Shown one piece after another: positions 3,008-61,859 of a stretch of 64,000 bases of DNA (position 1 is its first letter; every line of letters begins with the position of its first letter). This stretch comes from Lawsonibacter faecis (lineage in GTDB: Bacteria > Bacillota > Clostridia > Oscillospirales > Oscillospiraceae). The notes beneath the pieces were generated by a model that searched no databases, had not been told where the DNA came from, and saw only the letters and a list, made by a program, of their open reading frames with translations. A program made the position numbers and the translations under genes. The stretch covers positions 168,649 through 232,648 of the forward strand of contig NZ_JACOPQ010000002.1 in assembly GCF_014287675.1 (NCBI RefSeq), written 5' to 3'.

Positions 3008-6000
3008 CTATTCCCCGGGCTGCGCCGCCAGATGGCGGGCGAGAATCTGGGCAATCTGCGCGCGGGTGGCCGCGCCGCCCGGCATCAGGCAGAGCCTGCC
3101 GTCCGCACCCGCTCCGCCGCTGATAAGGCCCAGGCCCACCGCCCAGCACATTGCGTCGGCGGCATAGCCGGAGACCTCCCCCGCGTCCGTGAACGGCGCC
3201 AGCACGCCGCTCTCCCCGGGCTGCTCCGCGCCGGTATAGCGGTAGAGGATGAGCGCGATCTGCTCCCGGGTGATCGCGCCCTCCGGCCGGAAGCTGCCTC
3301 TGCCGTCGCCGGCGACCACGCCGTTCTCCGCCGCCCAGGCCACCGCGTCGGCGTACCAGAGGCCGGCCTCCACGTCGGCAAAGGGCTCCGCCCCGCCCTT
3401 CGGCGCGGGGCTGCCCGCCATGCGGTGCAGAATGGTCACCAGCTGGGCGCGGCTCAGCGTGCCGTCCGCGTCAAAGCGGCCCGCGCCGACGCCCTCCATG
3501 TATCCGCGCTCCAGCATCATGTCCACCGCGTCGTGGTACCAGGCGTTCCGCCCGACGTCGGTAAAGGCATCGCTCGGGCAGACCGCCGCCTCCAGCGCCG
3601 TCCTGGCCGCCTCCAGGGCGGCGTTGACCTTCGACTTGGCCGCCGCGGTCCGGACGGCCCTCTCGCCGTCGGAGAGGGCCTGCTCCAGGCGGGCCTTCCG
3701 GCAGGCGCAGGCGCCGGCCGGGTCCATGGACTCATAGATCTCCCGCAGCTCCCGCAGGGCCTTTTTCCGGGCGGTGGTCACGGCCGTGTCCCCCCAGACG
3801 GCGATCTCCCGCTCCAGGGCGCTCACCGCCGCATCCAGCGCGTCTGCCGCTGCGTCCAGCGTCTGCTGGTCCGCCTGCCCCTTCAAAAGCCGCTCCGCCG
3901 CGTCCAGCGCGGCCTGATAAACCTCCAGAGAGGCCTCGGTCATGCCGTCAAGCTCCGCCTTTTTCGCGTTCTCGACCGCTTTCTCCAGCTTTGTCCTGTC
4001 GGGCACGGGGGCGTCCGTATCCACCACGATGCTCCCCGCCGCCTCCGCCAGGACAGCCCCGTCCCGGCTCAGGAGCCGCGCGGTGACCCCGTGGGTCCCC
4101 CGGGGCAGGTAGTGGACCGTGTAGGACCACGCGCCGTCCCTGCTCAGCGCGGCGGTGTCCTCGTACCCCGCGAAGCTCAGCGCCACGCGGTCGCCGCTCC
4201 GGGCGGTCCCTGAGAGCGCAAAGGGGAAGGCGGTCACGGAGGAGGTAATCGACACATTGTCGTACTCCGCCCGCTGTCCGCTGGTGTACATGCCACAGGG
4301 CCCGGTCGTCAGTGCCGGGGACTTGCCGTCATCCTCCACATCCAGGATTTTGTCTCCGTCGATATACAGGACAAAGTGTTCGCCCTCAATCACCGCTTTA
4401 AAATGATAGGTCTGTCCAGCCGCCATTGTAAAGCTGCTGTCCGTGACATTCTGCTTAATTTCATTGTCCGCCCGTTTCAAGAAGCGGATGCCGGTCCCGG
4501 GCGTATAGACAAACAGGTAATTGTTGTTGCTGTCCTGATAGCGGAAGGTGAGTCCGAAGGTCTTCTTGTCAATCAGCTCCGTGGGCGTCACGTCCACCTC
4601 AATGGTATAGTCGTCGCCGATACCGGCCGCCGTCACAATGGTACCCCGCGCCCCGCCGTCGGTATTCAGATAGGTCAGCGTGCCGCCGGACACCGCATAG
4701 CCGCCCGTATGGTCGGTCCACCCGCTGAGATCGCCTCCGAAGTCCTCGGTTACCTCGGCCGCCGGGCTCAGGATTTCAACGGCGCTGGCGGCGACCTCCA
4801 CCGGGACCGCGTTGGAGACGACTGTGACGATGACGCCGCTGCGGTCCTCCAGCGTCACCTCCGCGGTGATCTCCGCCGTGCCCGCGGCCCTGGCGTCAAT
4901 GACGCCAGCGCCGTCCACGGCGGCCACGGCCTCGTCCGAGGAGCGGTAGCGCACGGCGGCCCCGTCCAGCTCCGCGAAGCCGCCGTCGTCCAGCCGGGCG
5001 CTCAGGGCGGTCCCGGCCCGCTCGCCAATCCAAAGCTCGGTTTTCTCCGCCTTGAGCGCGGCGGAGACCACGGCGCCCGTGCCCTCGCCGCCCCTCAGCT
5101 CGTAGCTGTGCCCCGCCTCAAAGGGGAACTTGATGGAGCCGTTGACCTCGTTGTACTCGAACTCCACGGTCTCCTCGGCGGTGACGTCGTACACCTCCAG
5201 CGTGGATACGGACCAGCCGTCGTTGCGGTTTGTAACGGTGGATTTGGTCGCGCCGTCCACGAAGGTGTACTCGTAGACCGAGCCCTTCCCCGCCACGGGG
5301 AACACCTCGGCGAAGTAGCTCCCCTTGTGCTCCATATCCTCGCCCACCAGGACGCCCTTGCCGCCGATGAAGGCGGGCATCTGGTCAATGGGCGCCTCGC
5401 GGTCCTTCAGGGTGACGGGGCCCTCGAACACCTCGCCGGTGTCGTACTGAATCCACCTGCCCTCGGGCAGGTAGACGTCCCGGCTGTGGGCGGTCAGGTG
5501 GTCGGTGCCGAAGAGGGGCGCGGCCAGCACGGACTCGCCCAGCATCCACTGGAACATCCGCTTTTCGCTGTTAATCATATCGTAGACCGCGTCGTCCTCA
5601 GGATAGGCGATGTAGAGGGGCGTCATGGAGAGGGGGTAGCCGGTCTCATAGCTCTTGAGGGCGGCGTCGTAGATGTAGGGCGCATAGGTGCTGTGCCAGT
5701 TGATGGCCTTGAAGGCGGCGTCCTTCTTCTCCTGGTCGTCCATCTTCAGCACGTTGACGCCCACGGACTGGCTGGGGCACAGGGCCGCCATATAGGCGTT
5801 GCGGACGATGTAGTTCTGATTGGCGGGATTGTGGACGTCCGCGCCGGTGCCGCCGATGATGTCCGGGTAGACGTTGGACTGGCCGCTGGCCGCGTAGGCG
5901 AGGGAGTTGATGACCATGCGGTCGGGGGAGTTGTTGAAGCTGTTGTTATTGGCTCCGTAGTTTGCGTCGTTGATGCGCAGGACGTCGCCGGGCAGGCAGT

Positions 6001-9989: not shown

Positions 9990-10000
9990 GCAAAAAGAGA

Positions 10001-10036
10001 GCGCCCCGGCGTCAATGATGTTGACGCCGGGGCGCT
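10001..10036 (+). terminator. Stem-loop terminator after the DegV gene
   Basis: gcgccccggcgtcaa...ttgacgccggggcgc inverted repeat immediately after the stop. Confidence 0.55.
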
Positions 10037-10075
10037 CGGGCTGTCTAAAAATTCTGCGCAGGGCAAGCCTCGCAG

Positions 10076-10210
10076 AGCTGCGCCGTCCGCGGACGGCGCA
10101 GTCAAATGAAACTCCGTTATTTCCGGGGACATGGGCCTGAGAAATTGACGCTTCTCATGACGGATGGGGCGGCTTTTTCCCGAGGAATCGAGCCCCAGAG
10201 GTCATGCAGC
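10076..10210. repeat. Copy 1 of a dispersed two-hairpin intergenic repeat; truncated where it abuts the HK gene end
   Basis: About 90% identical to the reverse complement of 31081..31210: gcgccgtccgcggacggcgc hairpin ... ggggacatgggcct.gagaaa.tgacgcttctcatgacgg.tggggcg.ctttttcc...gccccag.cgtcatg. Confidence 0.8.
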
Positions 10211-10214
10211 CCGT

Positions 10215-11540
10215 CTACACCCTTCCCTCCCCGGGCAGCTCCACCACAAAGGTCGCGCCGCCGCCCGGAGTATCCTCCGCGCGGATGGTCCCGCCGTGGA
10301 GGGAGATGATCTCCCGGGCGATGCACAGCCCCAGTCCGTAGTGCTCACGGTCGGTCCGGGCGCGGTCGGTCCGGTAGAACCGCTCGAAGACCCGCTCCTT
10401 CTCCCCGTCCGGGATGCCGGGGCCGGTGTCCGCCACGGTGAAGCGCACGCCGCTCCCCGCCCGCTCCACGCCCATCCCCAGGCTGCCGCCCGCCGGCGTA
10501 TAGGAAAGGCCGTTGTCCGTCAGAACGGTGAGCGCCTGGACCATCCGCTGCCGGTCCCACCGGAAGCGCCCCAGCGCCTTTTCGGGCAGCGCCACCGCCA
10601 GGCGGACGCCCTTCTCCCGGGCCGCGTGCTCGAAGCCCTCCGCCACGTCCAGCAGCAGGGTCTCCGGCTCCGCGTCCTCCAGGTACATGGTCCAGCTCCC
10701 GCTGTCGGCGTTGGCCAGGGCCAGCATATCCCCCACCAGGCGGGACATCCGCATACACTCGCCGTCCGCGAGCTGCGTAAAGTGCTCCGCCTTTTCAGGC
10801 GCAGCATCCTTCAGCGCCGACAGGCTGGCATGAATCACCGCCAGGGGCGAGCGCAGCTCATGGGAGGCCGCGGCGATAAACTCATTCTGCCGCCGCCTGC
10901 TCTCCGCCAGGGGACGGACGGCCCGCCCGGTGAAATACCACGCGAACAACGCCAGCAGCACCAGCGCCGCCAGGGTGAAGGCCCCAAAGGCCGTCCGCTG
11001 AACGGCGAGCTCCCGCTCCTCCTCCGCCATGGACTGGATGACCAGCGCCCCAATCCAACCCTTCTCCTGGGGGACCTTAGCCACGGCCGCCCGATAGCGC
11101 GCGAGCCCGCCGTCCTCAAAAAAGAAGGCGGTCTGGTCCGGCTGGCAGCGCAGATCCGGCTCCAGGCTCAGGTCGACGCCGTAGCCCTGCCACGCCGCCG
11201 CCCTGGCCCGCTCCACCAGCTCCCGCCGCCCGCCGCCGTCCGCCGCCGCGTAGAGGATGGGCTGTCCGGAGAGCTCCAGGTAGAGGGTCAGGTTCCCGCC
11301 CGCCTCCGTCTGGGAGATCCAGGTGTGGTCCACCACGGTCTGGCTGCGCAGGTGGTACAAAATGGCGTTCACGTCGCTCTGAAAGGCCGCCTCCGCCTTG
11401 GCGGTCAGCTGAATCTGGCTCACGGCCAGGGCCGCGCCGGACATGCCCAGGACAATCACCCCCGTGGCGGCGATGCAGAGGACCGTCAGCCGGAGGCGGA
11501 GGCGGCGGAAAAGGGCCTCCTCTCCCCCGTGCTCAGCCAT
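10215..11540 (-). CDS. Sensor histidine kinase (HisKA + HATPase_c), two transmembrane segments
   Basis: H-box ASHELRSPLAV; N/G boxes DTGPGIPDGEKERVFERFYR and GLGLCIAREII; its start overlaps the response-regulator stop by 8 nt. Confidence 0.9.
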   Translation of the reverse strand: MAEHGGEEALFRRLRLRLTVLCIAATGVIVLGMSGAALAVSQIQLTAKAEAAFQSDVNAILYHLRSQTVVDHTWISQTEAGGNLTLYLELSGQPILYAAADGGGRRELVERARAAAWQGYGVDLSLEPDLRCQPDQTAFFFEDGGLARYRAAVAKVPQEKGWIGALVIQSMAEEERELAVQRTAFGAFTLAALVLLALFAWYFTGRAVRPLAESRRRQNEFIAAASHELRSPLAVIHASLSALKDAAPEKAEHFTQLADGECMRMSRLVGDMLALANADSGSWTMYLEDAEPETLLLDVAEGFEHAAREKGVRLAVALPEKALGRFRWDRQRMVQALTVLTDNGLSYTPAGGSLGMGVERAGSGVRFTVADTGPGIPDGEKERVFERFYRTDRARTDREHYGLGLCIAREIISLHGGTIRAEDTPGGGATFVVELPGEGRV

Positions 11541-16786: not shown

Positions 16787-16908
16787 GGCAGCGGGATGCG
16801 GAACACGCACTGCAAGTACTCGGTACTTTTCGTCCGGCGGACAACTCCCCGTCCCGCCGGCACTGGGTCCCTTCCGGGACACTGCACGCGCATTCCTACT
16901 CTGCCTTT
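16787..16908 (-). ncRNA. THF (tetrahydrofolate, folT-motif) riboswitch aptamer in the folC-folT leader
   Basis: Minus strand reads GCAGAGUAGGAAUGCGCGUGCAGUG...GGAAGGGA...GGACGGGGAG...GCGUGUUCCGCAUCCCGCUGCC, matching the conserved THF-riboswitch blocks (AGAGUAG, CGCGU..AGUG, UUCCGCAUCCGCU). The gene context is folC/folT. Confidence 0.75.
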
Positions 16909-21832: not shown

Positions 21833-22043
21833 TAGCCGCAGGGCCGGGATGATAAATCCCGGCCCTGCGGCATACTTGGGAGGTTATCAGCGGTGTGGGC
21901 GGCCTGCCCGAAGCGTCAGAGGCTGAGGCCGCAAAGCAAAAAGCGGCGGCCCAATCCGGGGGCATCCGGGGCGGCAGACAAATCCTGTTTCGCTCCCCCT
22001 CGAATCGGCATATCATGTGTTATACCGATTAGGAGGTGCCAAT

Positions 22044-22505
22044 ATGATCATGCAGGCCATCGTCATCGAGGTTCAGTTGGGGCGTCTGCTCGTGCTGGAT
22101 CTGGATACACGGCAACAGGTCATTGTAAATACATCAGAGTTTCGCCGTTTTCGTACCGGCGACCTCGTGAATATCTGGTATAACGGTGTTATGACAAAAA
22201 GCATTCCCCCGCAGATTACCGCTCTGGGGATTATTGCGGTGCAGGGCGAGATGCCCCCTCTGTTTCCCCCGGGCGTCGCGCCCTGTCCGCCGAACGTGTG
22301 TCCGCCGGTGGTCAGGCCGCCTATCATCGTCCCGCCCATTTTCCCGCCGTTCTTCCCGCCCATCGTCCGCCCGCCGGTAGGTCCCCGTCCACCGGTGGGT
22401 CCCCGTCCCCCGGCGGGCCCACGTCCACCGGTCGGCCCACGTCCCCCGGCGGGCCCACGTCCACCGGTCGGCCCACGTCCCCCGGCGGGCCCACGCCCCA
22501 GATAG
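22044..22505 (+). CDS. Small protein of unknown function (paralog 1 of 3): conserved roughly 65-aa N-domain plus a proline-rich (GPRPPV/A)n tail
   Basis: RBS aggagg 7 nt before ATG. N-domain MIMQAIVIEVQLGRLLVLDLDTRQQVIVNTSEFRRFRTGDLVNIWYNGVMTKSIPPQITA is shared with the ORFs at 22757 and 57714. The tail is PVVRPPIIVPPIFPPFFPPIVRPP(VGPRPPAGPRPP)3. Confidence 0.65.
   Translation: MIMQAIVIEVQLGRLLVLDLDTRQQVIVNTSEFRRFRTGDLVNIWYNGVMTKSIPPQITALGIIAVQGEMPPLFPPGVAPCPPNVCPPVVRPPIIVPPIFPPFFPPIVRPPVGPRPPVGPRPPAGPRPPVGPRPPAGPRPPVGPRPPAGPRPR
22378..22497 (+). repeat. Coding tandem repeat, 18-bp unit (xGPRPP), about 6.5 copies
   Basis: ggtccccgtccaccggtg / ggtccccgtcccccggcg ... direct repeats. Confidence 0.8.
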
Positions 22506-22756
22506 TCCGGCCATGCCGCCCCCGACCCGGGGAGGCTTTTTATCCTTTGCCGCAAAAACAGCGCGCAGCGTCCATGTTTATCCCTCCCGCTCCCGGCCGG
22601 ATATCATAATTCCCGACGGACAAACTCCCCGGGAGGTGCGTCGCGCCCCGGCGGATTGCCGGGCAGCTTTTTTTCCACACCGGGCGGTATTTTGACACCT
22701 CCATCATGCTTTCGACATAGTATGCCATGTATGAATGATGGATGGAGGTGTCTTTT

Positions 22757-26089: not shown

Positions 26090-26287
26090 ATGAATTCGCT
26101 TAACCCCATCGCGGACCTGCCCATGGGCCTGGGTATGGCGCTGGCGCAGAACGTGGACGCCATGGAGCAGTTCGCCTCCCTCTCCCCCGACGAGCAGCGC
26201 CAGATCATCGACCAGACCCACACCATCAACTCCAAGAGCGAGATGCAGTCCTTTGTCCAGCACCTGACCAACCAGTACGACCTGTAG
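26090..26287 (+). CDS. Small hypothetical protein (65 aa)
   Basis: RBS aaaggag and a strong terminator immediately downstream. Confidence 0.5.
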   Translation: MNSLNPIADLPMGLGMALAQNVDAMEQFASLSPDEQRQIIDQTHTINSKSEMQSFVQHLTNQYDL

Positions 26288-26331
26288 AGGGAATCCCCCT
26301 GTCTTTTTGGCAGGGGGATTCCCTCTACAGG
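26283..26331 (+). terminator. Rho-independent terminator (20-bp perfect stem)
   Basis: ctgtagagggaatccccctg-tctttttgg-cagggggattccctctacag. Confidence 0.8.
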
Positions 26332-26450
26332 TCAAAAGAAGCCTTCGGGGCTTCTTTTGACGGCAGACCGCATGACGGACGGTGCTCGATTTCTTGGGAA
26401 ACAGTCGCCCCATGCGCTGTGAGAAGTGTCATTTCTCACAGCGCGCTGTC
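26331..26450. repeat. Copy 2 of the dispersed intergenic repeat
   Basis: gtcaaaagaagccttcggggcttcttttgac hairpin + gaccgcatgacggacgg...gagaagtgtcatttc module, homologous to 31039..31145. Confidence 0.7.
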
Positions 26451-26562
26451 CGTCATCCCGTCCGGCCTCAACAGCCACCCGCGTTTCGGGACGCGGCGGC
26501 GGGAAAGGGCACCTTTCTCCCCCCTTTCCCGTAGAATGGGCAGAGAGGGGGTGGCGGAGCCT

Positions 26563-30942: not shown

Positions 30943-31035
30943 GATAATTCCTCCCTTGCTTGTTGCAGCAAGTATAGCAAGGGGGTATAAAGAAAGATTA
31001 AAGCAGGAGATAAAAAGAGGTAAAGCGCGCCCGGG

Positions 31036-31210
31036 CAGCTTGTCAGGGAAGCCCCAGGGGGCTTCCCTGACAAAAGGCCGCATGACGGCTGGGGCCCGAT
31101 TTTTAGGAAAAAGTCGCCCCAGCCGTCATGAGAAGCGTCATTTCCGAGGCCCATGTCCCCAGGAATGACGAATTTTAAATTGACTGCGTCGTCCGCGGAC
31201 GGCGCGGCTC
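31036..31210. repeat. Copy 3 (the most complete) of the dispersed two-hairpin intergenic repeat
   Basis: cttgtcagggaagcccc-aggg-ggcttccctgacaa hairpin; catgacggctggggc...gccccagccgtcatg 15-bp inverted repeat; gagaagcgtcatttc; cgtcgtccgcggacggcg hairpin. Confidence 0.8.
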
Positions 31211-31289
31211 CGCAAGGCTTGCTCTGCGGAGATTTTTGACAGTCCGGGGCGCGCCGCCGGAGGGTTCCGGCGGCGCGCCTCTCCGCGGG

Positions 31290-32711
31290 TCAGGTCTCGG
31301 GCTTCTCCTCAGGCGCGGGGGCGGGGGCCGCGGCCGCGGGCGCCTCGTCCTTCTTCTCGCCCAGGAACTTGGGCAGGTTCATGCCCGCCATGTCGAACAT
31401 CTCGCTCATGGGGGGGATGGACTTCATCAGGCCGGAGATATATCCGGCGGTGCCGGTCTTGCCGTCCTGGCTCTGGCCGCCGTCCCAGACGGTGACCTTG
31501 TCGATCTTCACGTTCTTGATGGCGTCCACCTGGATGCGCATGAGGGTCTCCATCTTGTCGGCCAGCAGGAGGCGGACGGCCTCGTCGGCGTCGCCGCCGG
31601 CGGCGGCCACGATCTCCCGGAGGCCTTCGGCCTGCTTGAGCAGAATGGCCTGGGCGCCCGCGGCCTCGGCCTCCATCTTGGCGCGGATGGCGTCGGCCTC
31701 GCCCTGGGCCTTGCGGCGGATCTGCTCGGCCTCGGCCTCGGCCTCCAGCTCCTTGCGGCGCTTGTCGATCTCGGTCTTGACGATAATGTCGGCCTCGGCG
31801 GTGGCCTTCTCACGGGCGGCACGGGCGGCCTCCGCCTTCTGCTCGGCGGCGTACGCCTCCTCCAGGGCCTGGGCGGCGGCGATCTTCTCGGCGGCGGTGG
31901 CGATGCGGGTGGCCTCGGCCTCCTTCTCACGGCGCTGGGCGTTGCTCATGGCGACCTCCACCTTGGAGGAGTTCTCGCCCTGGATGGCGGTGGCGTCGGC
32001 CTGGGCCACCTGGACGCGCTGGTCACGGTGGGCCTGGGCCTCGCCGATGGAGCCGTCGCGGTCGCGCTCGGCCACGTTCTTCTTCGCGTCGTTGATAGCC
32101 TTGGCGGCGGCCTCCTTGCCCAGGGCGTCGATGTAGCCGGACTCGTCGGAGATGTCGGTGACGTTCACGTTAATGAGGCGCAGGCCGATCTTCTTCAGCT
32201 CGCCCTCCACGTTGCGGGAGACGGCCTCCAGGAACTTGTCGCGGTCGGTGTTGATCTCCTCGATGTCCATGGTGGCGATCACGAGGCGCAGCTGGCCGAA
32301 GATGATGTCCTTCGCCAGCTCCTGGATCTCCTGCAGCCGCAGGCCCAGAAGCCGCTCGGCGGCGTTTTGCATGATGCCGGGCTCGGTGGACACGCCGACG
32401 GTGAAGCGGCTGGGCACGTTGATGCGGATGTTCTGGCGGGACAGGGCGCTCTCCAGGTCCACGGAGATGGACATGGGAGTCAGGTCCAGGAACTCATAGG
32501 CCTGGATGACGGGCCAGATGAAGGACGCGCCGCCGTGGATGCATCTGGCGGATTTGCTGGAGCCGTCCTTGTTGCTGCCCACCTTACCGTAGATCACCAT
32601 GACCTTGTCCGAGGGGCATTTCTTATAGCGCTTGATCAAAAACAGCAGCAGAGAAAATAGGATTACGGCTGCGACGCAGATTAAAATCAGGGTGATAATG
32701 TTGTTAGGCAT
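31290..32711 (-). CDS. Flotillin / SPFH (band-7) family protein with a long Ala/Glu-rich coiled coil
   Basis: N-terminal TM + SPFH core; EA-rich repeats (AEATRIATAAEKIAAAQALEEAYAAEQKAEAARAA...). Downstream of nfeD. Confidence 0.85.
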   Translation of the reverse strand: MPNNIITLILICVAAVILFSLLLFLIKRYKKCPSDKVMVIYGKVGSNKDGSSKSARCIHGGASFIWPVIQAYEFLDLTPMSISVDLESALSRQNIRINVPSRFTVGVSTEPGIMQNAAERLLGLRLQEIQELAKDIIFGQLRLVIATMDIEEINTDRDKFLEAVSRNVEGELKKIGLRLINVNVTDISDESGYIDALGKEAAAKAINDAKKNVAERDRDGSIGEAQAHRDQRVQVAQADATAIQGENSSKVEVAMSNAQRREKEAEATRIATAAEKIAAAQALEEAYAAEQKAEAARAAREKATAEADIIVKTEIDKRRKELEAEAEAEQIRRKAQGEADAIRAKMEAEAAGAQAILLKQAEGLREIVAAAGGDADEAVRLLLADKMETLMRIQVDAIKNVKIDKVTVWDGGQSQDGKTGTAGYISGLMKSIPPMSEMFDMAGMNLPKFLGEKKDEAPAAAAPAPAPEEKPET

Positions 32712-32809: not shown

Positions 32810-33550
32810 TCACGGCTCCCCGGCGACGGACTCCACCACCAGGGTATCGCCGCCGGTGACGCCGGTGACCAGCACGTCCGCGCCGGTGGGGATGGGACGC
32901 TCCTCGTCGGTGACGGCCTCGAACTCCCGCAGCTGCTCCTGCACCAGAACGTTCACCTTGCCCGGGCCCATGCGCCCGGCGGGGACGGTGAGATAGACGC
33001 TGCCGGTCCGCCCCAGGGCGTTGCGGATGTCCAGAGTGCCGTCCGACTGGAGGCGCAGGGCCTCCCGCAGGATGACGGCCACGCTTACCATGCCGATGAC
33101 GCCGATCTGAACGGCCAGGAACAGCGCGATCAGCGGATGCATGCCCAGGGTGCAGAACAGCAGGCCGCTCCAGCCGAAGAGGGTGAAGAAGGTGACGAAG
33201 CCGCGGACGGTGAAGACGTTGAGGCCGGAGAAAAGTCCGGGCCCGTGGGCCTCGCCGCCGTCGGGCGCGTCCGCGTGGAGCTCCAGATGGTCGGGCACGC
33301 CGTCCCCGTCCAGGTCCAGGGATAGGCCGTCGGGCACGCCGTCCCCGTCCAGGTCCAGGGATAGGTCGTCGGGGACGCCGTCCCCGTCCAGGTCGGCGCC
33401 CTCCGCCCCGTCCGGGCCGTCGGCATCGTGGCCGCCGCCCAGCCCGATGAGCAGGAGCACCGTCTGGATGAGCAGGATGAGCGTCGCGGGAACTGCGACG
33501 TAGAGCAGCACACGCTCCAGCGCTGTCAGGGATTCCAGCCAGATGAGCAT
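32810..33550 (-). CDS. NfeD-family membrane protein (flotillin partner) with an inserted acidic DxDGDGVPD repeat loop
   Basis: C-terminal OB-fold (GRTGSVYLTVPAGRMGPGKVNVLV...VLVTGVTGGDTLVVE), two TM regions, and three DLDGDGVPDxLSL repeats. Confidence 0.75.
   Translation of the reverse strand: MLIWLESLTALERVLLYVAVPATLILLIQTVLLLIGLGGGHDADGPDGAEGADLDGDGVPDDLSLDLDGDGVPDGLSLDLDGDGVPDHLELHADAPDGGEAHGPGLFSGLNVFTVRGFVTFFTLFGWSGLLFCTLGMHPLIALFLAVQIGVIGMVSVAVILREALRLQSDGTLDIRNALGRTGSVYLTVPAGRMGPGKVNVLVQEQLREFEAVTDEERPIPTGADVLVTGVTGGDTLVVESVAGEP
33289..33395 (-). repeat. 39-bp coding tandem repeat (about 2.7 copies) encoding DGDGVPDxLSLDL
   Basis: cgtccccgtccaggtccagggataggccgtcgggcacgc repeated. Confidence 0.75.
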
Positions 33551-34409: not shown

Positions 34410-34506
34410 GATGGAGGCGGAATGGGGCGGCTTTTCCCAAGAAACCGGGCTCCATCCGTCATACAGCCTGCTGTCAAAGAAGCCCCGCGGGGCTTTCTTG
34501 GCAAGC
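34410..34506. repeat. Copy 4 of the dispersed intergenic repeat
   Basis: atggggcggcttttcccaagaaaccgggctccatccgtcat + ctgtcaaagaagcccc-gcg-gggctttcttggcaag. Confidence 0.7.
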
Positions 34507-34561
34507 TGAACGCCCGCCCGGCGCAAATGCGCCGGGCGGGCGTTGGGTGCTCGTTTTGGAT

Positions 34562-36670
34562 TTATTCGCCGGTCACGGCGTTCTGGGCGGCCACACGGCC
34601 GTAGTAGACGGCGGAGCCGATGGCCATGCCGCAGCAGGGGTACTCGGCGTCGAAGAGGCCGGTGAAGGCCACCTCGCCCGCGGCGTACAGGCCGGGGATG
34701 GGCTGGTCGTTGGTATCCAGCACGTGGGCGCCGGTGTCGATCTCCAGGCCGCCGAAGGTGACGGAGGAGCCGGGGGTCATGCGGAAGGCGTAGTAGGTGT
34801 CGCCCTCCACGGGGATCATATACTCGGCGGGCTTGCCGAAGTCGTCGTCGCTGCCCTTGGCGCACAGCTCATTGTAGCGGTCCACGGTGGCCTTGAGGGC
34901 GGCGCCGTCCATGCCGATCTGGGCGGCCAGCTCCTCGATGGTGGCGGCGTGGGGCACGGACTCAATCTGAATGCCGCCGGCCAGGGTGGGATAGGGCTCC
35001 ACGCACTTGCCGTCCTTGGAGGCGGTGATGTAGTAGCCGCAGGTGCTGTCCGCGTCGGCCAGGGCCTGGGCCACATGGGACTGGTAGGTCCACTCGTCCA
35101 CCACGCGGTCGCCGTCCTCGGAGACGATGAGGCCGGACTCCTCGTTGATGCCGCAGTAGCAGTCGTAGCTGACGTAGACCAGCTGGAGGCCGGGGGCGTC
35201 GAAGTTCTTGGCGCCCACCGCCACGGCCATGTTCAGGCCGTCGCCCACATTGGTCATGGGCACGCCGGAGTAGACGTTGGTGGGCAGGAAGTCGTTGTAC
35301 TTGGCCAGCATCTCCTCGTTGTGGGCATAGCCACCGGTGGCGAGGATGACGGCGGGGGCGTTGACGGTAATCTTGCTGCCGTCGGCCTTCTCGGCCTTCA
35401 CGCCGACCACGGCGCCGGCGGCGTCGGTGATAAGCTCGGTGGCGGGGCAGTTATAGAGGATCTGGCCGCCGGCGTCCTCATAGGTCTTGGTGAGGGGCAC
35501 GCAGAACTGGCCGCCGTGGCCGCTGGTCTGGCCGCCGCCGCCCTTGACGTTGTGGACGCGCCAGGGGGTCAGGGAGGAGTGGATGGGCTCCACGTCCTGG
35601 ATCTGGACGCCCCGGTCCACCAGCCACTGGATGTTCTCGGCGGAGGCGTCGCAGAAGGTGCGGACCAGGTCCTCGTTCATAATGCCGTCCCGGTCGTAGC
35701 TCATGAGGAAGTCGTACATCATGTCGGGGGTGTCGGTGAAGTTCTGGGCCTCCTGGGTCGAGGTGCCCGCGCCCAGAATCTTGCCGCCGCTGCGGGTGGT
35801 GGAGCCGCCGGTGACGCCGGTCTTCTCCAGCACTAGGACGTTGGCCCCCGCCTCCCTGGCGGTGACGGCGGCAGACAGGCCGGCCGCGCCGGCGCCCACG
35901 ACGACCACGTCCACGTCGAAGGTCTCGTCGGCGGGGGCGCTCTTCTCCACCACGGCGCTCTTCAGGGCCTCGGCGTCGCCGCCGGCCTTGGTGACGCACT
36001 CAGCCACGGCCTGCTTGATGGCGTTGCTGGTGACGGTGGCGCTGGTGACGCTGTCCACCGCCAGGGACTGAGCCTCCACGATAGCGGGGCCCATGGTCTC
36101 CACGGGGGAGGTCTTCAGGCCGTAGCCCAGGCCGTAGGTCTCCGTGTGGTCCTTCACCTGCACGTCGGTGATGGAGGCGTCGTCAAAGGTGACGGCCACG
36201 GTCATCTCGCCGTTGTGGCCCTTGACGGAGGCCTCGTAGGTGCCTGCCTGGTAGCCGGCGGCCTCGGGGGCCTCCTTCCCCATGGCCTCGTCCAGGCACT
36301 TCTGGACGGCGGCCTTGATGGCGTTGCAGGTGAGGGTGGCGCCGCTCTCCGTGTCCACCTCGGTGGACTGGGCGTCCAGGATCTTGGTCTTCATGGGGTC
36401 GGCGGCCACGCCGCCGATGCTCTCGGTCTCCACGGACGCGTCGATCTGGATGTCGGTGATGGCGGTGCCGCTGACGGTGACCTCCACCTTCACGGGGCCG
36501 TTCATGCCCAGGGACTCGGCGGTATAGGTACCGGCCTTGTAGACCGCCTCGGCAGCGGGGGTCTGGCTGGGCGTCTCGGACGGCTTCGTGTCGTCGCCGC
36601 CGCAGGCTGCCAGGGAGAGTACCATAGCCCCGGCCAGCGCAAGGGACAGGAGCTTCTTTGTGTGCTTCAT
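34562..36670 (-). CDS. Lipoprotein flavoprotein reductase: two FMN-binding domains plus a fumarate-reductase/urocanate-reductase-like FAD domain; likely extracytoplasmic
   Basis: Lipobox LSLAACG. Rossmann motif VVVVGAGAAGLSAAV...GANVLVLEK...GGST in an FRD/SDH-flavoprotein-like fold. Tandem FMN_bind-like N-terminal domains. RBS aacggaggtg. Confidence 0.75.
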   Translation of the reverse strand: MKHTKKLLSLALAGAMVLSLAACGGDDTKPSETPSQTPAAEAVYKAGTYTAESLGMNGPVKVEVTVSGTAITDIQIDASVETESIGGVAADPMKTKILDAQSTEVDTESGATLTCNAIKAAVQKCLDEAMGKEAPEAAGYQAGTYEASVKGHNGEMTVAVTFDDASITDVQVKDHTETYGLGYGLKTSPVETMGPAIVEAQSLAVDSVTSATVTSNAIKQAVAECVTKAGGDAEALKSAVVEKSAPADETFDVDVVVVGAGAAGLSAAVTAREAGANVLVLEKTGVTGGSTTRSGGKILGAGTSTQEAQNFTDTPDMMYDFLMSYDRDGIMNEDLVRTFCDASAENIQWLVDRGVQIQDVEPIHSSLTPWRVHNVKGGGGQTSGHGGQFCVPLTKTYEDAGGQILYNCPATELITDAAGAVVGVKAEKADGSKITVNAPAVILATGGYAHNEEMLAKYNDFLPTNVYSGVPMTNVGDGLNMAVAVGAKNFDAPGLQLVYVSYDCYCGINEESGLIVSEDGDRVVDEWTYQSHVAQALADADSTCGYYITASKDGKCVEPYPTLAGGIQIESVPHAATIEELAAQIGMDGAALKATVDRYNELCAKGSDDDFGKPAEYMIPVEGDTYYAFRMTPGSSVTFGGLEIDTGAHVLDTNDQPIPGLYAAGEVAFTGLFDAEYPCCGMAIGSAVYYGRVAAQNAVTGE

Positions 36671-39558: not shown

Positions 39559-39837
39559 ATGGTATACTGGGTCTACATCCTCCGCTGCGGCGACGGCAGC
39601 CTCTACACCGGCATCGCCCATGACGTGGAGCGCCGCCTGGCGGCCCACGCCGGCGGCAGGGGCGCCAAGTACACCCGGGGCCGGGGGCCGCTGGCGGTGG
39701 TCTACCGGGAGGCCTGCCCCGACAAGTCCGCCGCCCTGCGGCGGGAGCTGGCCATCAAGGCCATGACCCGGGCGGAGAAGCTCCGGCTCATCGAAGCCGG
39801 GGCCCCTGATGAAACCACAAGAGAACGGGACGGTTAA
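39559..39837 (+). CDS. GIY-YIG nuclease family protein (UPF0213)
   Basis: VYWVYILRCGDGSLYTGIAHDVERRLAAH...YT; GIY-YIG core. Confidence 0.75.
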   Translation: MVYWVYILRCGDGSLYTGIAHDVERRLAAHAGGRGAKYTRGRGPLAVVYREACPDKSAALRRELAIKAMTRAEKLRLIEAGAPDETTRERDG

Positions 39838-39838
39838 C

Positions 39839-40813
39839 ATGCGCTACTACATGGCCCCCATGGAGGGGGTGACCGGCTGGGTCTACCGCAATGCCTTCCA
39901 CCGGCATTTCACCGGCCCGGACAAGTACTATATGCCCTTCCTCTCCCCCAGGGCGGAGCACCATTTTTCCAAAAAGGAGCTTCAGGACGTGCTGCCCGAG
40001 CACAACGAGGGGCTCAGCGCCGTCCCCCAGCTCATGACCCGCTCCGCGGAGGATTTCGTCTGGGCGGCGGGCGAGCTGGGGCGGATGGGCTACCGGGAGG
40101 TGAACCTCAACCTGGGCTGTCCCTCGGGCACGGTGGTCGCCAAGGGGAAGGGCTCCGGCCTGCTGGCCAGTCCGGAGGAGCTGGACGCCTTTCTGGACGG
40201 AATTTACTCCGCGCCTCTGGACGTCTCCGTCACGGTGAAGACCCGCCTGGGGCTCCGGGCGCCGGAGGAGTTTGAGGCCCTGCTGGAGGTCTTTGGCAAA
40301 TACCCCATCCCGGAGCTCACAGTCCACCCCAGGGTCCAGAAGGACTTTTACAAAAACCGCGCGAGGCCGGAGTGGTTTGCGCGGGCCTGGGAGGTATCCT
40401 CCGCCCCCCTTTGCTACAACGGCGACCTGGTGAGCCTGGCGGACTGCCGGGCGGCTGCCGCCCGCTTTCCCGGAATTGAGGCGCTGATGCTGGGCCGGGG
40501 GCTGATTGCCAATCCCGGCCTTATCTCCCGGCTCAGGGGCGGGCCGGGGACGGACAGGGACGCCCTGCGCGGGTTCCACGACGAGCTCTACCAGGGCTAC
40601 TGCGAGACCTTCCGCAGCCGCCGCAACGCCGTCATGCGGATGAAGGAGGTCTGGTTCTACCTCATCCACCTGTTCCGCGACAGCGAAAGGCACGCCAAGA
40701 AGCTGCGCAAGGCCGCCGACCCGGCGGAGTACGAGGCCCGGGCCGCGGCCATCTTTCGGGATTTGGAGCTGCTGGAGGACCCCACGCTTTTTCAGACGGA
40801 TACCGGATGGTAA
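39839..40813 (+). CDS. tRNA-dihydrouridine synthase (Dus family)
   Basis: YMAPMEGVTGWVYR N-terminal Dus signature and a TIM-barrel core. Confidence 0.8.
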   Translation: MRYYMAPMEGVTGWVYRNAFHRHFTGPDKYYMPFLSPRAEHHFSKKELQDVLPEHNEGLSAVPQLMTRSAEDFVWAAGELGRMGYREVNLNLGCPSGTVVAKGKGSGLLASPEELDAFLDGIYSAPLDVSVTVKTRLGLRAPEEFEALLEVFGKYPIPELTVHPRVQKDFYKNRARPEWFARAWEVSSAPLCYNGDLVSLADCRAAAARFPGIEALMLGRGLIANPGLISRLRGGPGTDRDALRGFHDELYQGYCETFRSRRNAVMRMKEVWFYLIHLFRDSERHAKKLRKAADPAEYEARAAAIFRDLELLEDPTLFQTDTGW

Positions 40814-40854
40814 ACGGCAATATGATGCGTCCGCGCCCATGGGCGCGGACGCAT

Positions 40855-40915
40855 TTATGCTTGTCAGGAAAGCTCCGAGGGGCTTCCCTGACAGAGGGCT
40901 GCATGGCGGATGCTT
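40855..40915. repeat. Copy 5 (partial) of the dispersed intergenic repeat
   Basis: cttgtcaggaaagctccgaggggcttccctgacag hairpin + gctgcatggcggatgc. Confidence 0.6.
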
Positions 40916-41024
40916 ATTTGATTCCGCCGCCCGCGGGCGGCGGCTCTGCGGGGCTTTCTCCGGGGAGGGCTTTTTGGCAGCCTGGATGCATCCGCACTTG
41001 CATTTTCCCGGAATCCGTATTATG

Positions 41025-47306: not shown

Positions 47307-47456
47307 ATGAAGAAAGCTGTCTCTTGCAAGTGTTATGATACAGGTAAGTTGTTACGGATTCACTCCTCAAATGTTACAAGGACTTTAAATCTTTTTGGAC
47401 AGTCTGTAAAGCCCGGCGGGAGATGTTCAAATCCACCAGATTGTGCTATACTATGA
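47307..47456 (+). CDS. Candidate small ORF (49 aa, 4 Cys) in the AT-rich leader of the radical-SAM operon; uncertain
   Basis: aggaaagagga RBS 9 nt before ATG; MKKAVSCKCYDTGKLLRIHSSNVTRTLNLFGQSVKPGGRCSNPPDCAIL. Codon usage is AT-rich and atypical for this genome, and a predicted promoter overlaps its 3' end. Confidence 0.25.
   Translation: MKKAVSCKCYDTGKLLRIHSSNVTRTLNLFGQSVKPGGRCSNPPDCAIL
47426..47452 (+). promoter_or_regulatory. Possible extended -10 promoter for the acyltransferase/radical-SAM operon
   Basis: TTCAAA, 15-nt spacer, TGcTATACT. Confidence 0.35.
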
Positions 47457-49574: not shown

Positions 49575-50888
49575 ATGAAAATTCTGCTTGTCCGCCCCAA
49601 ATTCTTCTCCCTGGTCGCCAACCTGGAGCCCTTGGGGCTGGAATACCTGGGCGGGGCCCTCCGGGAGGAGGGCATCCCCTACGAGATATGGGACGAGTTT
49701 CAGGCCCCCTTCGCCCTCCGCTTCACCCGGCTGCGGCGGAAAATCCGCCGGGAGCGCTTTACCGCGGTGGGCTTCAGCGTGAACGCCAACACCGCCGACG
49801 AGGTGCGGGAGAAGGCCCGCGCCCTCAAGGCGGAGTTTCCCCGGCTCACCGTTCTGGTGGGCGGGCCGGAGGCGGAGGTCAACTACCGGGACTTCTGCAC
49901 CGAGGGCGTGGACTTCGTCTGCTACGACTACGGCGTGGAGACCTTCCGCGCCATGTGCGCCTCCGGGTTTGACCCGGCGGCAGCAGCCGCCCTGCCCGGA
50001 CTGGCCCGGCGGACGGGGGACGGCTGGGTGTGCAATCCCCCGGCGCCGCCCGTCTCCAACTTCACCGTCCAGCCCGACCGGGAGCCCATGCGCCGGAGCT
50101 GGAGGCGCAACTTCATCTTCGGCAAGGGGCCCCACGCCCTGGTGAAGGCCTCCTTCAGCTGTCCCTTCCGCTGCGCCTTCTGCTACTGCACCATGATGAA
50201 CGGCGGGGTTTACACGCAGCGGCCCCTCAGCGACGTGCTGGCCGACATCGAGGCGCTGGAGGCGGAGCGCATCTGGCTGGTGGACGACGATTTTCTCCTG
50301 AACCGGGAACGGGTGGTGGAATTCTGCGATCTGGTGCTGAAAAGGGGCGTCCGAAAGCAGTTCATGGCCTACGCCCGGGCCGACTTCCCGGCGGAGCACC
50401 CGGACCTCCTCCCCCTGCTCTACCGGGCGGGCTTCCGGGACATTCTGGTGGGGCTGGAGGCCGCCGACGACGCCACCCTGGACGCCTACCACAAGGAGAC
50501 GGGCAGGGCGGTCAACGAGGCGGCCATCCGCAATCTCCGGGCCGCGGGGCTGGTGTGCAACGGCCTTTTCGTGGTGAGCCACGCCGCCACCCGGGAGGAT
50601 TTCCGCAATCTCCTGGACTTTATCCGCAAAAACAGGCTCCTATGGGTGGTCTTCGGCATCTTCACGCCCTACAAGGGGAGCGACGCCTATGAGGAATACC
50701 GGGACAGGCTGCTCACCCGCAAAGCCAAAAAGCTGGACGGCCTCCATGTGACCATCCGGCCCGAGCATATGTCCAAGCTCATGTTCTACCTGCGGGTCGT
50801 CCTGCTCCACGCCGCCACCTACCCCAAGCTCCTCTTCCGCATCCTCCGGGGCACCGCCTACGATACGGAGAAGGACGGGTGGTGGTGA
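49575..50888 (+). CDS. Cobalamin-binding radical SAM protein (class B) 1
   Basis: N-terminal B12-binding-like domain (MKILLVRPKF...LGLEYLGGAL). CxxxCxxC motif SFSCPFRCAFCYC. RBS gaggagg. Confidence 0.8.
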   Translation: MKILLVRPKFFSLVANLEPLGLEYLGGALREEGIPYEIWDEFQAPFALRFTRLRRKIRRERFTAVGFSVNANTADEVREKARALKAEFPRLTVLVGGPEAEVNYRDFCTEGVDFVCYDYGVETFRAMCASGFDPAAAAALPGLARRTGDGWVCNPPAPPVSNFTVQPDREPMRRSWRRNFIFGKGPHALVKASFSCPFRCAFCYCTMMNGGVYTQRPLSDVLADIEALEAERIWLVDDDFLLNRERVVEFCDLVLKRGVRKQFMAYARADFPAEHPDLLPLLYRAGFRDILVGLEAADDATLDAYHKETGRAVNEAAIRNLRAAGLVCNGLFVVSHAATREDFRNLLDFIRKNRLLWVVFGIFTPYKGSDAYEEYRDRLLTRKAKKLDGLHVTIRPEHMSKLMFYLRVVLLHAATYPKLLFRILRGTAYDTEKDGWW

Positions 50889-50889
50889 G

Positions 50890-52248
50890 ATGAACGTGCT
50901 GCTCCTCCGCCCCAGACCCCACAGGGAGACCATCGGACTGCAGAACGTGATGATCTGCGAGCCGCTGGAGCTGGAGTACCTGGCCGCCGCGCTCCTGGAG
51001 GCGGGACACCGGGTGGAGATCGTGGATCTGATTCTGGACCGCCGCCCCCTGGAGCGGATTACGGCGCAGTTCCAGCCCCGGCTGGTGGGCATCACAGGGT
51101 ACGTCGCCCATGTGAACGTGGTGAAGGCCCTGGCGGCCCGGGTCAAGGCGCTGGTCCCGGGCGTATGGGTGGCGGTGGGCGGCGTCCACGCCGAGGTGGT
51201 TCCCCGGGACTGGGAGGACCCCGCCGTCGACTTCATCCTCACCGCCGGGGGCGGGCGTACCCTGACCGCCCTGGCCGACGCCCTGGAGCAGGGCTGCGCG
51301 CCCCCGGCGGAGGGCGTCTGGAACCCGGAAGACCCCGTCCGGCGGCCCAACGCCCCGGATCTCTCCGCCCCCCTCCCCTGGCGGGAGGGCGTGGCGCGCT
51401 ACCGCAGGCGCTATTACTACATGTTCCACCGGGACTGCGCCCTGGTGAAGACCTCCTACGGCTGCCCCTACGAGTGCTCCTTCTGCTTCTGCCGGCAGGT
51501 GACCGGATACGCCGCCCGGCCTGTGGCGGACGTGCTGGACGAGCTGGAGACCATCCCCCAGAAGGAAATCTATCTGGTGGACGACGATTTTCTCTTCAAC
51601 GAGGCCCGGCTGGCCGCCTTCTGCGGCGCTCTGGAGGCGCGGGGCATCCGCAAGCGGTACCTGGTCTACGGCCGGGCCGACTTCATAGCCGCCCACGAGA
51701 GCCTCATCGACCGGCTGCGGAGAAACGGACTGAGGGCGGTGATCATCGGCCTGGAGTCCGCCGACGACCGGGAGCTGGACCGCTATCAGAAGCACTCCAC
51801 CGCCCAGACCAACGAGGACGCGGTGCGCATTCTGCAAAGGTGCGGCGTGGAGTGTTACGGAGCCTTCGTCCTGGGCCCGGACTGGGGGAAGGACGAGTTT
51901 CGCGCCCTGGCCCGGTGGATAAAGCGCCTGGGCATCACCTTCGTCAATCTGCAGCCCCTGACGCCCCTGAAGGGCACGCCGGAGTTCGGGGCCTGGCGGG
52001 ACAGGCTCATCGTCCCGGCGGAGGAATTTGAAAAGTGGGACATGGCCCATCTGGTGGTGCGGCCGGGAAAGCTCAGCGTGCGGCAGTACTATTGGCAGAT
52101 GACCCTGCTCTACTGGAAGACCATGGCCAACCCCGCCCGGGCCTGGGGCATGGCGAGGCGTTACGGCTTTTTAGAGACCCTGAAGCTCTCCCTGGGGGCC
52201 ATGAGGGTCAACTGGCAGTACATCAAAAAGATAGTCAGGGGGAAATGA
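50890..52248 (+). CDS. Cobalamin-binding radical SAM protein (class B) 2
   Basis: B12-binding-like N-domain (MNVLLLRPRP...LELEYLAAAL); CxxxCxxC SYGCPYECSFCFC; the start lies 1 nt after the preceding stop. Confidence 0.8.
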   Translation: MNVLLLRPRPHRETIGLQNVMICEPLELEYLAAALLEAGHRVEIVDLILDRRPLERITAQFQPRLVGITGYVAHVNVVKALAARVKALVPGVWVAVGGVHAEVVPRDWEDPAVDFILTAGGGRTLTALADALEQGCAPPAEGVWNPEDPVRRPNAPDLSAPLPWREGVARYRRRYYYMFHRDCALVKTSYGCPYECSFCFCRQVTGYAARPVADVLDELETIPQKEIYLVDDDFLFNEARLAAFCGALEARGIRKRYLVYGRADFIAAHESLIDRLRRNGLRAVIIGLESADDRELDRYQKHSTAQTNEDAVRILQRCGVECYGAFVLGPDWGKDEFRALARWIKRLGITFVNLQPLTPLKGTPEFGAWRDRLIVPAEEFEKWDMAHLVVRPGKLSVRQYYWQMTLLYWKTMANPARAWGMARRYGFLETLKLSLGAMRVNWQYIKKIVRGK

Positions 52249-57429: not shown

Positions 57430-57714
57430 TCATCTGCGGCGGGGCGGGCGGCAGCCGCGGCACCCGAAGGGCGGGCGCACCACGGGCGGGAGCACCGTGG
57501 GCGGAAATACCGCCGGTATCAGCTCAATTCTCTGGGCGCTGATCTGCGGCGGAATGCTGTTGGTCATCACGCCGTTATACCAGATACGTACCAGGTCGCC
57601 GGGCTGAAACCGGTTGGCGGCGGGCGTATGGACCACCACTCTCTGCCGGGTCTCCCGGTCCAGTACCAGCAGACGCCCCCACTGCACGTCGAGCACGGCT
57701 GCATGCATTATCAT
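57430..57714 (-). CDS. Small protein of unknown function (paralog 3 of 3): conserved N-domain plus a short Pro/Cys/Arg tail
   Basis: MIMHAAVLDVQWGRLLVLDRETRQRVVVHTPAANRFQPGDLVRIWYNGVMTNSIPPQISA is about 60% identical to paralog 1; RBS ggaggtg. Its 5' region is near-identical to that of paralog 1. Confidence 0.65.
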   Translation of the reverse strand: MIMHAAVLDVQWGRLLVLDRETRQRVVVHTPAANRFQPGDLVRIWYNGVMTNSIPPQISAQRIELIPAVFPPTVLPPVVRPPFGCRGCRPPRRR

Positions 57715-61565: not shown

Positions 61566-61859
61566 CAGAATTTCCTCCATATGTATATTTGAATACACGA
61601 ATGTGTCAAATATACATATTATACGACAGGGCAAATCATGTTGCAATCGAAATTTGGCGATTTTTCTCAAAAGGCGGAAATCAATTCACTGGTTATTTGT
61701 GCGTTATTCCGGCAGTACAAGGAAAGCTCTGCTCCCAAAAACAGAAAGCCCTTGCAATCACTAGCTTTTCTAGCAATTGCAAGGGCTCCAAGAGTGTAAC
61801 ACACAAACAAAATAGATGCCACGCAGTCTTGCCCAACCGTTTGAATAACTAAAAAATAA

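Follow-up and report, generated by a model that had tools for sequence, protein, structure and literature searches.

A dispersed intergenic repeat in the Lawsonibacter faecis window

The window analyzed here, a stretch of 64,000 nucleotides from contig NZ_JACOPQ010000002.1 of Lawsonibacter faecis, carries five copies of a hairpin-rich repeat, termed c10, c26, c31, c34 and c40. The repeat is very probably a family of ~210-bp non-autonomous miniature inverted-repeat transposable elements (MITEs) of the IS1182 lineage, which is mobilized in trans and lands on terminator hairpins. This assignment is based on the terminal inverted repeats (TIRs), the lack of an open reading frame (ORF), the dispersed copies, and the ends and target footprint common with insertion sequences (ISs) of the IS1182 family.

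BLASTN with positions 31020-31260 as the query recovered the other four window loci reported in an earlier note on this DNA, with E values of 1.6e-42 to 7e-10. A degenerate core pattern gave four matches in the window versus none in 100 shuffles, and a profile hidden Markov model (HMM, built on 12 copies) together with a covariance model detected exactly five copies and none further in the 64 kb. Three copies lie on the plus strand and two on the minus strand within 31 kb. All five are intergenic, and the bordering ORFs show the strong third-position GC bias (GC3) typical of real genes. BLASTN, the two models and the GC3 signal thus bear out the proposal of the earlier note that a dispersed family occupies five intergenic loci in both orientations. 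Its estimate of about 90% identity over roughly 95 nt between the copies at 10.1 and 31.1 kb was too high, as the two share 82% over 188 nt by BLASTN and 84% over 98 nt without gaps. Two end-like 16-mers at 282-297 and 47391-47406 were rejected as extra copies, since they fall in a coding region and an unrelated spacer.

The flanks of the window copies are mutually unrelated. Copy c10 lies between the convergent genes of a DegV protein and a histidine kinase (assigned by Pfam), and begins 3 nt past the stop codon of the latter (10215-11540, minus strand). The neighbors of c26 are a 65-aa ORF and a DUF6774 gene, and those of c31 are a flotillin/Band_7 gene (31290-32711, minus strand) and a TraX gene. 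Copy c34 sits between an FAD/FMN flavoprotein gene (34562-36670, minus strand) and a gene for a MerR/DUF1836 protein, and c40 between a Dus gene (39809-40813, plus strand) and the gene of a LacI-type regulator.

Architecture and fold of the repeat unit

The full unit, represented in the window solely by c31, spans 211 bp and comprises 16-bp TIRs of the CAGCTTGTCAAAGAAG type that enclose five hairpins, A to E. The other four window copies are shortened or internally deleted, and full-length units range from 203 to 215 bp. The three parts of the ~170-nt unit described earlier are all present, but they make up only a portion of this larger, five-hairpin architecture with terminal repeats. Hairpins A and E, at the left and right ends, respectively, show no kinship to each other. 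Each element end nevertheless consists of an A-tract, a GC stem-loop and a T-tract, so that the ends resemble the terminators that are targeted; neither hairpin A nor hairpin E of c31 was called as a terminator in a simple consensus scan.

Folding of c31 as RNA yielded -111.4 kcal/mol, corresponding to a z-score of -7.4 against 200 shuffles. No promoter-like site was found in the unit. A search of Rfam at gathering thresholds assigned the unit to no family, the only passing matches in the window being a tetrahydrofolate (THF) riboswitch and a tRNA, and permissive Rfam scans of two copies returned merely sub-threshold matches to microRNA-type hairpins. A candidate reading frame from a conserved ATG meets a stop codon in c31 and is not conserved between the c31 and c10 sequences; coding potential was rejected because of this stop codon in one copy.

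Pairing was evaluated over 61 stem pairs in the covariance-model alignment of 13 copies, in which 88.5% of the cells are paired. Changes on both sides occur in 30 of the 61 pairs, compared to just 6-11 such pairs when the partners are slid by 1-3 columns, and none of 500 shuffles reached any of five pairing measures; these counts derive from an alignment fitted to the structure and from copies related by descent. The 40 G:T cells barely exceed the 31 A:C cells, and helices B and E lean in opposite ways, so that selection on one particular RNA strand is not clearly indicated. The stems may instead be maintained as features of the DNA, or through templated repair of one palindrome arm from the other. 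Hardly any change between species is seen in the hairpin C loop (GAGGCRCATGTCCCC) or in the linkers TGAGAAGTGTC, TTTGATT and AACTCTGCGAGG. As RNAalifold gave just 5 pairs on a gappy 12-copy alignment, the structure was finally taken from a hand-drawn model, the covariance model and the pair counts.

Element ends and the duplicated stem-loop

In the host species the element is bounded by CAGCTTGTCAAAGAAG ... TTTTTGACAGYCYG, the opposite end reading CGGACTGTCAAAAATC / CAGGCTGCCAAAAAGC as its reverse complement, and in Flavonifractor sp. An10 by CAGCGTGTCGAAAAAG ... GTTTTTCGACAGTCTG. The end sequence of relatives is likewise CAGCGTGTCGAAAAAG, and the right end of one An10 copy (An10_1) is CAGACTGTCGAAAAAC. 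The two terminal repeats covary between species (TGTCAAAGAAG/TTTTTGACA versus TGTCGAAAAAG/TTTTTCGACA). In the window they are degenerate, matching at 10-11 of 16 positions, and they are cleaner in An10 and in two related elements, namely a 212-bp element in locus L136, which has the common ends but a different interior, and a 163-bp element in locus L260.

At four clean MITE copies a stem-loop is present on both sides as a direct duplication that touches both element ends. The duplicated stem-loop is 31 bp long at L136, 28/29 bp at An10_3, 24 bp at L191 and 23 bp at L260; at L136 and L260 the two hairpins are identical, and at L191 and An10_3 a single base or a 1-nt indel separates them.

Every window copy touches one intact GC-rich stem-loop, at a distance of 0-2 nt (Table 1). 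At c31, we take the hairpin at 31247-31279 to be the copy of the duplicated target that has been retained. The 11-nt stretch GCGCGCCCGGG on the opposite flank matches this hairpin at 9 of 11 positions in inverted orientation and over 7 nt directly, and on the minus strand it is followed by a T-rich tract, as expected after a terminator; judged from these matches, it probably derives from a second copy of the target stem-loop that has since eroded. Similarly, the right-flank stretch of c40 at 40985-40995 is read, from its likeness to the left-flank hairpin, as the remnant of an internally deleted second target copy. We infer that the window copies are old and inactive, given that they occur in all sampled conspecifics, that 4 of the 5 are internally deleted, and that each retains a single intact hairpin.

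Table 1. Coordinates of the repeat copies, of the modules of the full-length copy, and of adjoining or related features (window positions unless a locus is named)
Feature	Position	Strand	Description
MITE copy c31	31036..31246	+	211 bp, full length; covariance model 214.7 bits, E = 1.9e-58
MITE copy c10	10037..10214	-	modules B to E and right TIR; without hairpin A and left end; 150.8 bits
MITE copy c26	26328..26455	+	hairpin A variant, module B, start of hairpin C; rest replaced or diverged; E = 1.5e-27
MITE copy c34	34416..34508	-	left TIR, hairpin A, most of module B; remainder deleted; E = 4.3e-20
MITE copy c40	40857..40984	+	left TIR (ATG replacing CAG), hairpins A, D and E, right TIR; without modules B and C; 74.3 bits
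c31 left TIR	31036-31051	+	c31 sequence reads CAGCTTGTCAGGGAAG
c31 hairpin A	31040-31073	+	15 bp
c31 hairpin B	31081-31130	+	15 bp outer stem, 4 bp inner stem, conserved U-rich/A-rich loop
c31 linker between hairpins B and C		+	TGAGAAG
c31 hairpin C	31136-31170	+	10 bp stem, 13-nt loop; AT-rich linker after
c31 hairpin D	31184-31207	+	10 bp
c31 hairpin E	31208-31231	+	7 bp, then T-run
c31 right TIR	31231-31246	+	
c31 host stem-loop GGCGCGCCGCCGG/CCGGCGGCGCGCC	31247..31279		touches c31 right end; downstream of flotillin/Band_7 gene
c31 left-flank stretch GCGCGCCCGGG	31025..31035		11 nt; resembles arm of the 31247-31279 hairpin
c10 host stem-loop AGCGCCCCGGCGTCAA...TTGACGCCGGGGCGCT	10000..10036		touches c10 right end; between convergent DegV and histidine-kinase genes
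c26 host stem-loop AGAGGGAATCCCCCTG...CAGGGGGATTCCCTCT	26287..26326		after 65-aa ORF; at c26 left end
c34 host stem-loop ACGCCCGCCCGGCGC...GCGCCGGGCGGGCGT	34510..34543		downstream of FAD/FMN flavoprotein gene; at c34 left end
c40 host stem-loop GATGCGTCCGCGCCC AT GGGCGCGGACGCATTT	40824..40856		downstream of Dus gene; touches c40 left end
c40 right-flank stretch GATGCATCCGC	40985..40995		10 of 11 bases equal first 11 nt of the 33-bp 40824-40856 hairpin
Altered c31-side hairpin in other conspecific assemblies	L002, L003, L004 about 4438-4520; L142 11434-11620		N runs or G/C-only junk
Loci of CAWIIJ01 with GGAAAAAGYCGCCCCAKCC	L075, L077, L079, L086, L104, L105, L108, L115, L116		

Autonomous elements of the IS1182 family share the ends and the footprint

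When IMG/VR was scanned with the 16-mer end and the matches were screened for inverted pairs, two 1.5-kb elements with MITE ends emerged; further relatives were drawn from viral contigs and two identical-protein look-ups. The autonomous ISs with the MITE end sequence are 1.5-1.7 kb long and encode an IS1182-family DDE transposase. One of them (L263:2526-4050), bounded by CAGCCTGTCGAAAAAG and CAGCTTGTCGAAGAAC, contains a single 473-aa ORF that scores 399 bits against the NCBIfam model NF033551 (IS1182 family transposase; cut-off 270) and has the Pfam domains DUF772, DDE_Tnp_1 and DDE_Tnp_1_6; its flanks are an exact 40-bp duplicated stem-loop. The relatives carry the ends CAGnCTGTCGAAAAAG or CAGACTGTCAAAAAA/CAGACTGTCAAAGAA, the latter being identical to the window MITE end at 13 of 15 positions, and overall the IS ends CAGCCTGTCGAAAAAG, CAGACTGTCAAAGAA and CAGTCTGTCGAAAAAG are 13/15 to 14/16 identical to MITE ends.

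All 13 complete IS loci with matching flanks, which represent 11 distinct sites, show a duplicated stem-loop of 15-40 bp touching both ends. Nine of these sites have the duplication as an exact direct repeat, and in the remaining two an inverted loop accompanies identical stems (L213:911-933 versus 2443-2465, and the L302/L303 flanks; CTTTG versus CAAAG and TTGTG versus CACAA), which means that one hairpin copy is the reverse complement of the other. This loop inversion may reflect flipping by arm-arm recombination, or may be a clue to the insertion mechanism. On short metagenome contigs the two IS flanks are sometimes different hairpins, each still a stem-loop at the IS end; such unmatched flanks are probably chimeric assemblies or products of recombination between IS copies.

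The likeness extends to the layout of the left end. In the gut ISs it runs from the terminal repeat through a stem-loop to an inverted repeat or T-run, matching hairpin A of the MITE. ISEfa7, a named relative with ~50% protein identity and the end CAGACTGTAGACAAAG, has a left end composed of a terminal repeat, a loop and an inverted repeat copy, which is the architecture of hairpin A. Based on these ends and footprints, we infer that an IS1182-family DDE transposase mobilizes the unit in trans. The TGT ends and an IstB gene in locus L139 had brought an IS21 partner into consideration; it was rejected, as no matching ends lie beside the IstB gene.

The IS1182 clade with MITE ends is extremely abundant in gut metagenomes, with up to 9,539 member sequences in a single protein cluster at 90% identity. 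The large clusters P0241, P0194, P0310, P0195 and P0268 hold 1,500-9,500 members, mostly on contigs of 1.5-2 kb, and this abundance of short contigs suggests that ISs of the clade routinely break assemblies.

Distribution among conspecifics and relatives

Homologues of the flotillin adjacent to c31 place the host near Flavonifractor/Pseudoflavonifractor. The conspecific sample consisted of contigs from several NCBI isolate assemblies and from gut metagenomes that encode a residue-identical copy of this flotillin. Wherever a sampled conspecific assembly or contig spans c26, c31, c34 or c40, the copy is there in nearly identical form; c10 was seen in one other contig only (L067). The idea in the earlier note that the copies mark strain-specific plasticity is therefore not supported. 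In other conspecific assemblies the c31-side hairpin (corresponding to window 31247-31281) is replaced by N runs or ~180 bp of G/C-only junk; these runs, the only length differences among conspecifics, are an artefact of assembly or sequencing and no real polymorphism.

Eight copies were found beyond the window: the metagenome assembly ODIR01 has four of them, Flavonifractor sp. An10 three (within 21 kb), and an IMG/VR contig with 63% GC a single one. The ODIR01 copies lie at other loci, and the assembly also contains contigs 99% identical to two window loci. A metagenome scan returned 66 loci, six of them real and all from ODIR01. In five other relatives (88-94% flotillin identity), each represented by 13-21 kb, no copy of the family was found, and one of the five, L136, holds the 212-bp sibling element with the same ends. 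At the c34-orthologous site of this sister species, the orthologous terminator hairpin and a conserved promoter are present with no element; Band_7 identity there is 93%, and the flanks are too diverged for exact junctions.

A strict 28-position pattern, which matches four window copies, had no match in a genome collection in which the host species is apparently not represented, and the 63 loci matched there by the 19-mer GGAAAAAGYCGCCCCAKCC were all judged chance occurrences by nhmmer. Viral scans with the module B/C pattern and with a hairpin C 19-mer found nothing, a viral scan with a looser module B pattern found one chance match, and nothing in the plasmid and phage collections matched the unit by BLASTN. 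Nine separate exact matches to GGAAAAAGYCGCCCCAKCC (best nhmmer E = 0.01) fall in CAWIIJ01, a metagenome-assembled genome of the Acidobacteriota, where a separate dispersed repeat outside this family is suspected.

A model for insertion at terminator hairpins

According to the proposed model, an IS1182-family transposase supplied in trans would move the unit onto a stem-loop rich in GC, as a rule the intrinsic terminator at the 3' end of a gene. The target would be chosen by its structure and not by its sequence, since the duplicated hairpins have no common sequence. The simplest mechanism would be staggered strand transfer at both feet of the palindrome followed by gap repair. Because the whole stem-loop of 15-40 bp is duplicated, a fresh insertion would lie between two hairpin copies, the first retaining the upstream A-tract and the second the T-tract, as seen for example at L291. 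The terminator-like ends of the element may then halt read-through in place of the hairpin whose T-tract has been displaced, and such a terminator-like role of the element is plausible. Over time, one of the two flanking hairpin copies would have eroded at each window copy.

Several observations weigh against an IS1182-mobilized MITE. No presence/absence polymorphism was detected among the sampled conspecific assemblies, so that mobility in the host species would be historical. A full duplicated hairpin is absent at the window copies, whose 7-11 nt remnants could be chance. Neither the window nor any retrieved locus of the host species or of Flavonifractor sp. An10 yielded an IS1182-family transposase. 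The contigs with the partner ISs are other ones, of gut or viral origin and mostly of lower GC (32-54%), and amino-acid composition of 240 homologues gave no clear candidate for a GC-rich transposase relative fitting the host species. None of the recovered ISs contains anything matching the ~150-bp interior (modules B to D), and this also leaves no support for the alternative raised earlier that the copies are parts of a known IS. Moreover, this interior is conserved across species, loops included, as is not required of a purely selfish MITE. Finally, IS1272 of Staphylococcus, the best-studied member of the IS1182 family, which also targets terminator hairpins, is reported to delete part of the hairpin without target duplication, the opposite footprint (PMC4923244, PMC5678879).

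The conservation of the interior raises the question of whether it is more than junk between transposon ends. It seems unlikely that the ~150 bp of hairpins B to D form a selected functional module. Such a module could possibly be a structured RNA delivered to 3' untranslated regions (UTRs), affecting transcript stability or termination, or a DNA or RNA cofactor for an IS1182-type transposase that recognizes extruded terminator hairpins.

Alternative explanations

One alternative holds that the unit is a multi-copy structured non-coding RNA, either a 3'-UTR or a small-RNA module, with hairpins under RNA selection and incidental ends. The compensatory both-side changes in 30 of 61 pairs, the 88.5% of paired cells, the 0 of 500 shuffles and the fold z-score of -7.4 all speak for it, as do the near-invariant hairpin C loop and linkers and an interior that is not in the partner ISs. 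These counts, however, rest on an alignment fitted to the structure, and palindrome arms can covary through templated repair without function. There is no consistent strand bias (40 G:T versus 31 A:C, with helices B and E opposed), both orientations relative to the neighboring genes occur, and modules have been freely deleted in copies that are nonetheless fixed. Together with the lack of a promoter-like site and of an Rfam family, and with TIRs and hairpin-length target duplications common to ISs, this makes a purely RNA-based origin improbable. That the copies are immobile products of local segmental duplication or recombination of terminator regions would accord with the fixation of all five across conspecific assemblies and with their clustering within 31 kb. 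It is nevertheless scarcely tenable, given that the flanks are mutually unrelated, that other species hold copies at unrelated loci with exact target duplications, and that the orthologous site in the sister species is empty.

The earlier description of the family as MITE- or REP-like stands in its first half, on account of the TIRs, the lack of an ORF, and the IS1182 ends and footprint. The second half would imply either a repetitive extragenic palindromic (REP) element or bacterial interspersed mosaic element (BIME) spread by a REP-associated tyrosine transposase (RAYT), or a palindrome-associated transposable element (PATE) spread by the Y1 transposase of an IS200/IS605 element, with recognition of single-strand hairpins. 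REP/BIME sequences are RAYT-dependent imperfect palindromes of 20-40 nt that have no terminal inverted repeats or target duplications, and PATEs of the IS200/IS605 type likewise have neither and insert with a strand bias. Although the unit is hairpin-rich, modular and intergenic with CAG at both ends, it has the 16-bp TIRs and long target duplications lacking in those systems, shows no strand bias (three copies on the plus and two on the minus strand within 31 kb), and has unrelated left and right hairpins where a PATE would have similar subterminal ones. The partner, moreover, is a DDE transposase and not a RAYT, and spread by either of these single-strand systems is extremely improbable.

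Mobilization by an IS30-family (IS1630-like) transposase would fit the footprint, as IS1630 is reported to target a terminator stem-loop and to duplicate the whole inverted repeat, 19-26 bp (PMC2853133; Calcutt et al. 1999, cited in PMC7648426); among published ISs, no other is described as making such a duplication of terminator inverted repeats. Yet every recovered autonomous element with MITE ends encodes an IS1182-family transposase, and no IS30-type gene was seen beside such ends in a comparison that left out IS1630's own ends. An IS30-type mobilizer is accordingly very unlikely, and an IS1182-family transposase is preferred.

Comparison with known systems

IS1182-derived MITEs are already known, and what is less ordinary here is the hairpin-duplicating footprint together with the conserved five-hairpin interior. 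The closest precedent, MITEPye1 of Paracoccus yeei, is an IS1182-family-derived MITE flanked by 4-bp direct repeats (PMC11578231). Like the present unit, it is short, ORF-less and intergenic, contains stem-loops and IS1182-family TIRs, and is presumed to be mobilized in trans. The two are unrelated in sequence and occur in Alphaproteobacteria and Clostridia, respectively; the 4-bp repeats of MITEPye1 contrast with the whole stem-loop of 15-40 bp duplicated here, and, unlike MITEPye1, the unit has a five-hairpin interior that is conserved across species.

The end motif is common with IS1182-family ISs, reading CAGACTGTAGACAAAG in ISEfa7 of Enterococcus faecium and CAGyCTGTCGAAAAAG in the gut-Clostridia clade (e.g. 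WP_021661141.1). These ISs resemble the unit in a left end made of a terminal repeat plus a stem-loop and in the preference for terminator hairpins, whereas the unit lacks a transposase gene and has an unrelated interior. The ISfinder range of direct repeats for the IS1182 family is 0-60 bp. Some IS1182 members target palindromes, as relayed in PMC4923244. The gut clade and its MITEs duplicate the hairpin, in contrast to IS1272, which is reported to delete part of it.

The duplication recalls that of IS1630 from Mycoplasma fermentans, an IS30-family member which is reported to duplicate terminator inverted repeats of 19-26 bp (PMC2853133; reference 23 of PMC7648426). IS1630 resembles the unit in targeting terminator-derived inverted repeats with a duplication that varies in length and sequence, and differs in its transposase family and in being an autonomous 1.4-kb IS.

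The well-known families BOX and RUP of S. pneumoniae, ERIC, Correia and REP/BIME are also dispersed, intergenic, hairpin-forming and modular, and are often co-transcribed with their neighbors. None of them is known to duplicate a terminator hairpin upon insertion. The unit has no sequence similarity to BOX, RUP, ERIC, Correia or REP sequences (the Rfam search gave nothing).

Other features of the window

The window contains several further features apart from the repeat family. A THF riboswitch aptamer (Rfam RF01831) lies at 16787-16905 on the minus strand and scores 75.8 bits, compared to a gathering score of 36. In the low-GC stretch at 58-64 kb, the GC content drops from ~65% to 50-57%; this stretch includes a 907-aa ORF (58947-61670, minus strand), which has a SIR2_2 domain (Pfam E = 2.9e-13) and may be a defence-type gene gained by horizontal transfer; next to it lies tRNA-Ser(GGA) at 62537-62627 on the minus strand. 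A 1881-aa surface protein encoded at 3008-8653 on the minus strand possesses GH31, laminin-G/3-keto-disaccharide-hydrolase-like, Big_2, FIVAR and SLH domains.

Other repeats are local or paralogous. The 18-bp unit CGTCCACCGGTSGGYCCM is present in seven tandem copies at 22350-22516, overlapping an ORF (22073-22555, minus strand) for which no Pfam match was found. Three tandem 39-bp repeats at 33259-33402 lie inside a conserved hypothetical gene (ORF 32810-33550, minus strand), which sits between the MerR/DUF1836 and flotillin genes and encodes a protein without a Pfam match. Adjacent paralogous genes occupy 49575-50888 and about 50900-52000 on the plus strand, the first with B12-binding and radical SAM domains. 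Across the pair, several segments (45-76 nt) recur exactly 1297 nt apart with 72-78% identity. Two inverted repeats (109 nt, 73%; 88 nt, 78%) link 22006-22232 with 57526-57752, 35 kb apart, over small ORFs, and are probably paralogous small genes in opposite orientation.

Significance

Identification of the family as an IS1182-type MITE explains the recurrent unannotated intergenic repeats in Flavonifractor-like gut Clostridia, and links them to a very abundant gut clade of IS1182 elements. Short-read assemblies are broken or corrupted at the copies and the GC-rich hairpins beside them, which are also potential recombination sites. The insertion rule itself is uncommon, in that a terminator stem-loop of any sequence serves as the target and is wholly duplicated, and the deletion described for IS1272 and an IS1630-like duplication can now be compared inside one transposase family. 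Insertion of this kind keeps clear of genes and places a hairpin at either border of the element; it could also rewire 3' ends and transcriptional read-through.

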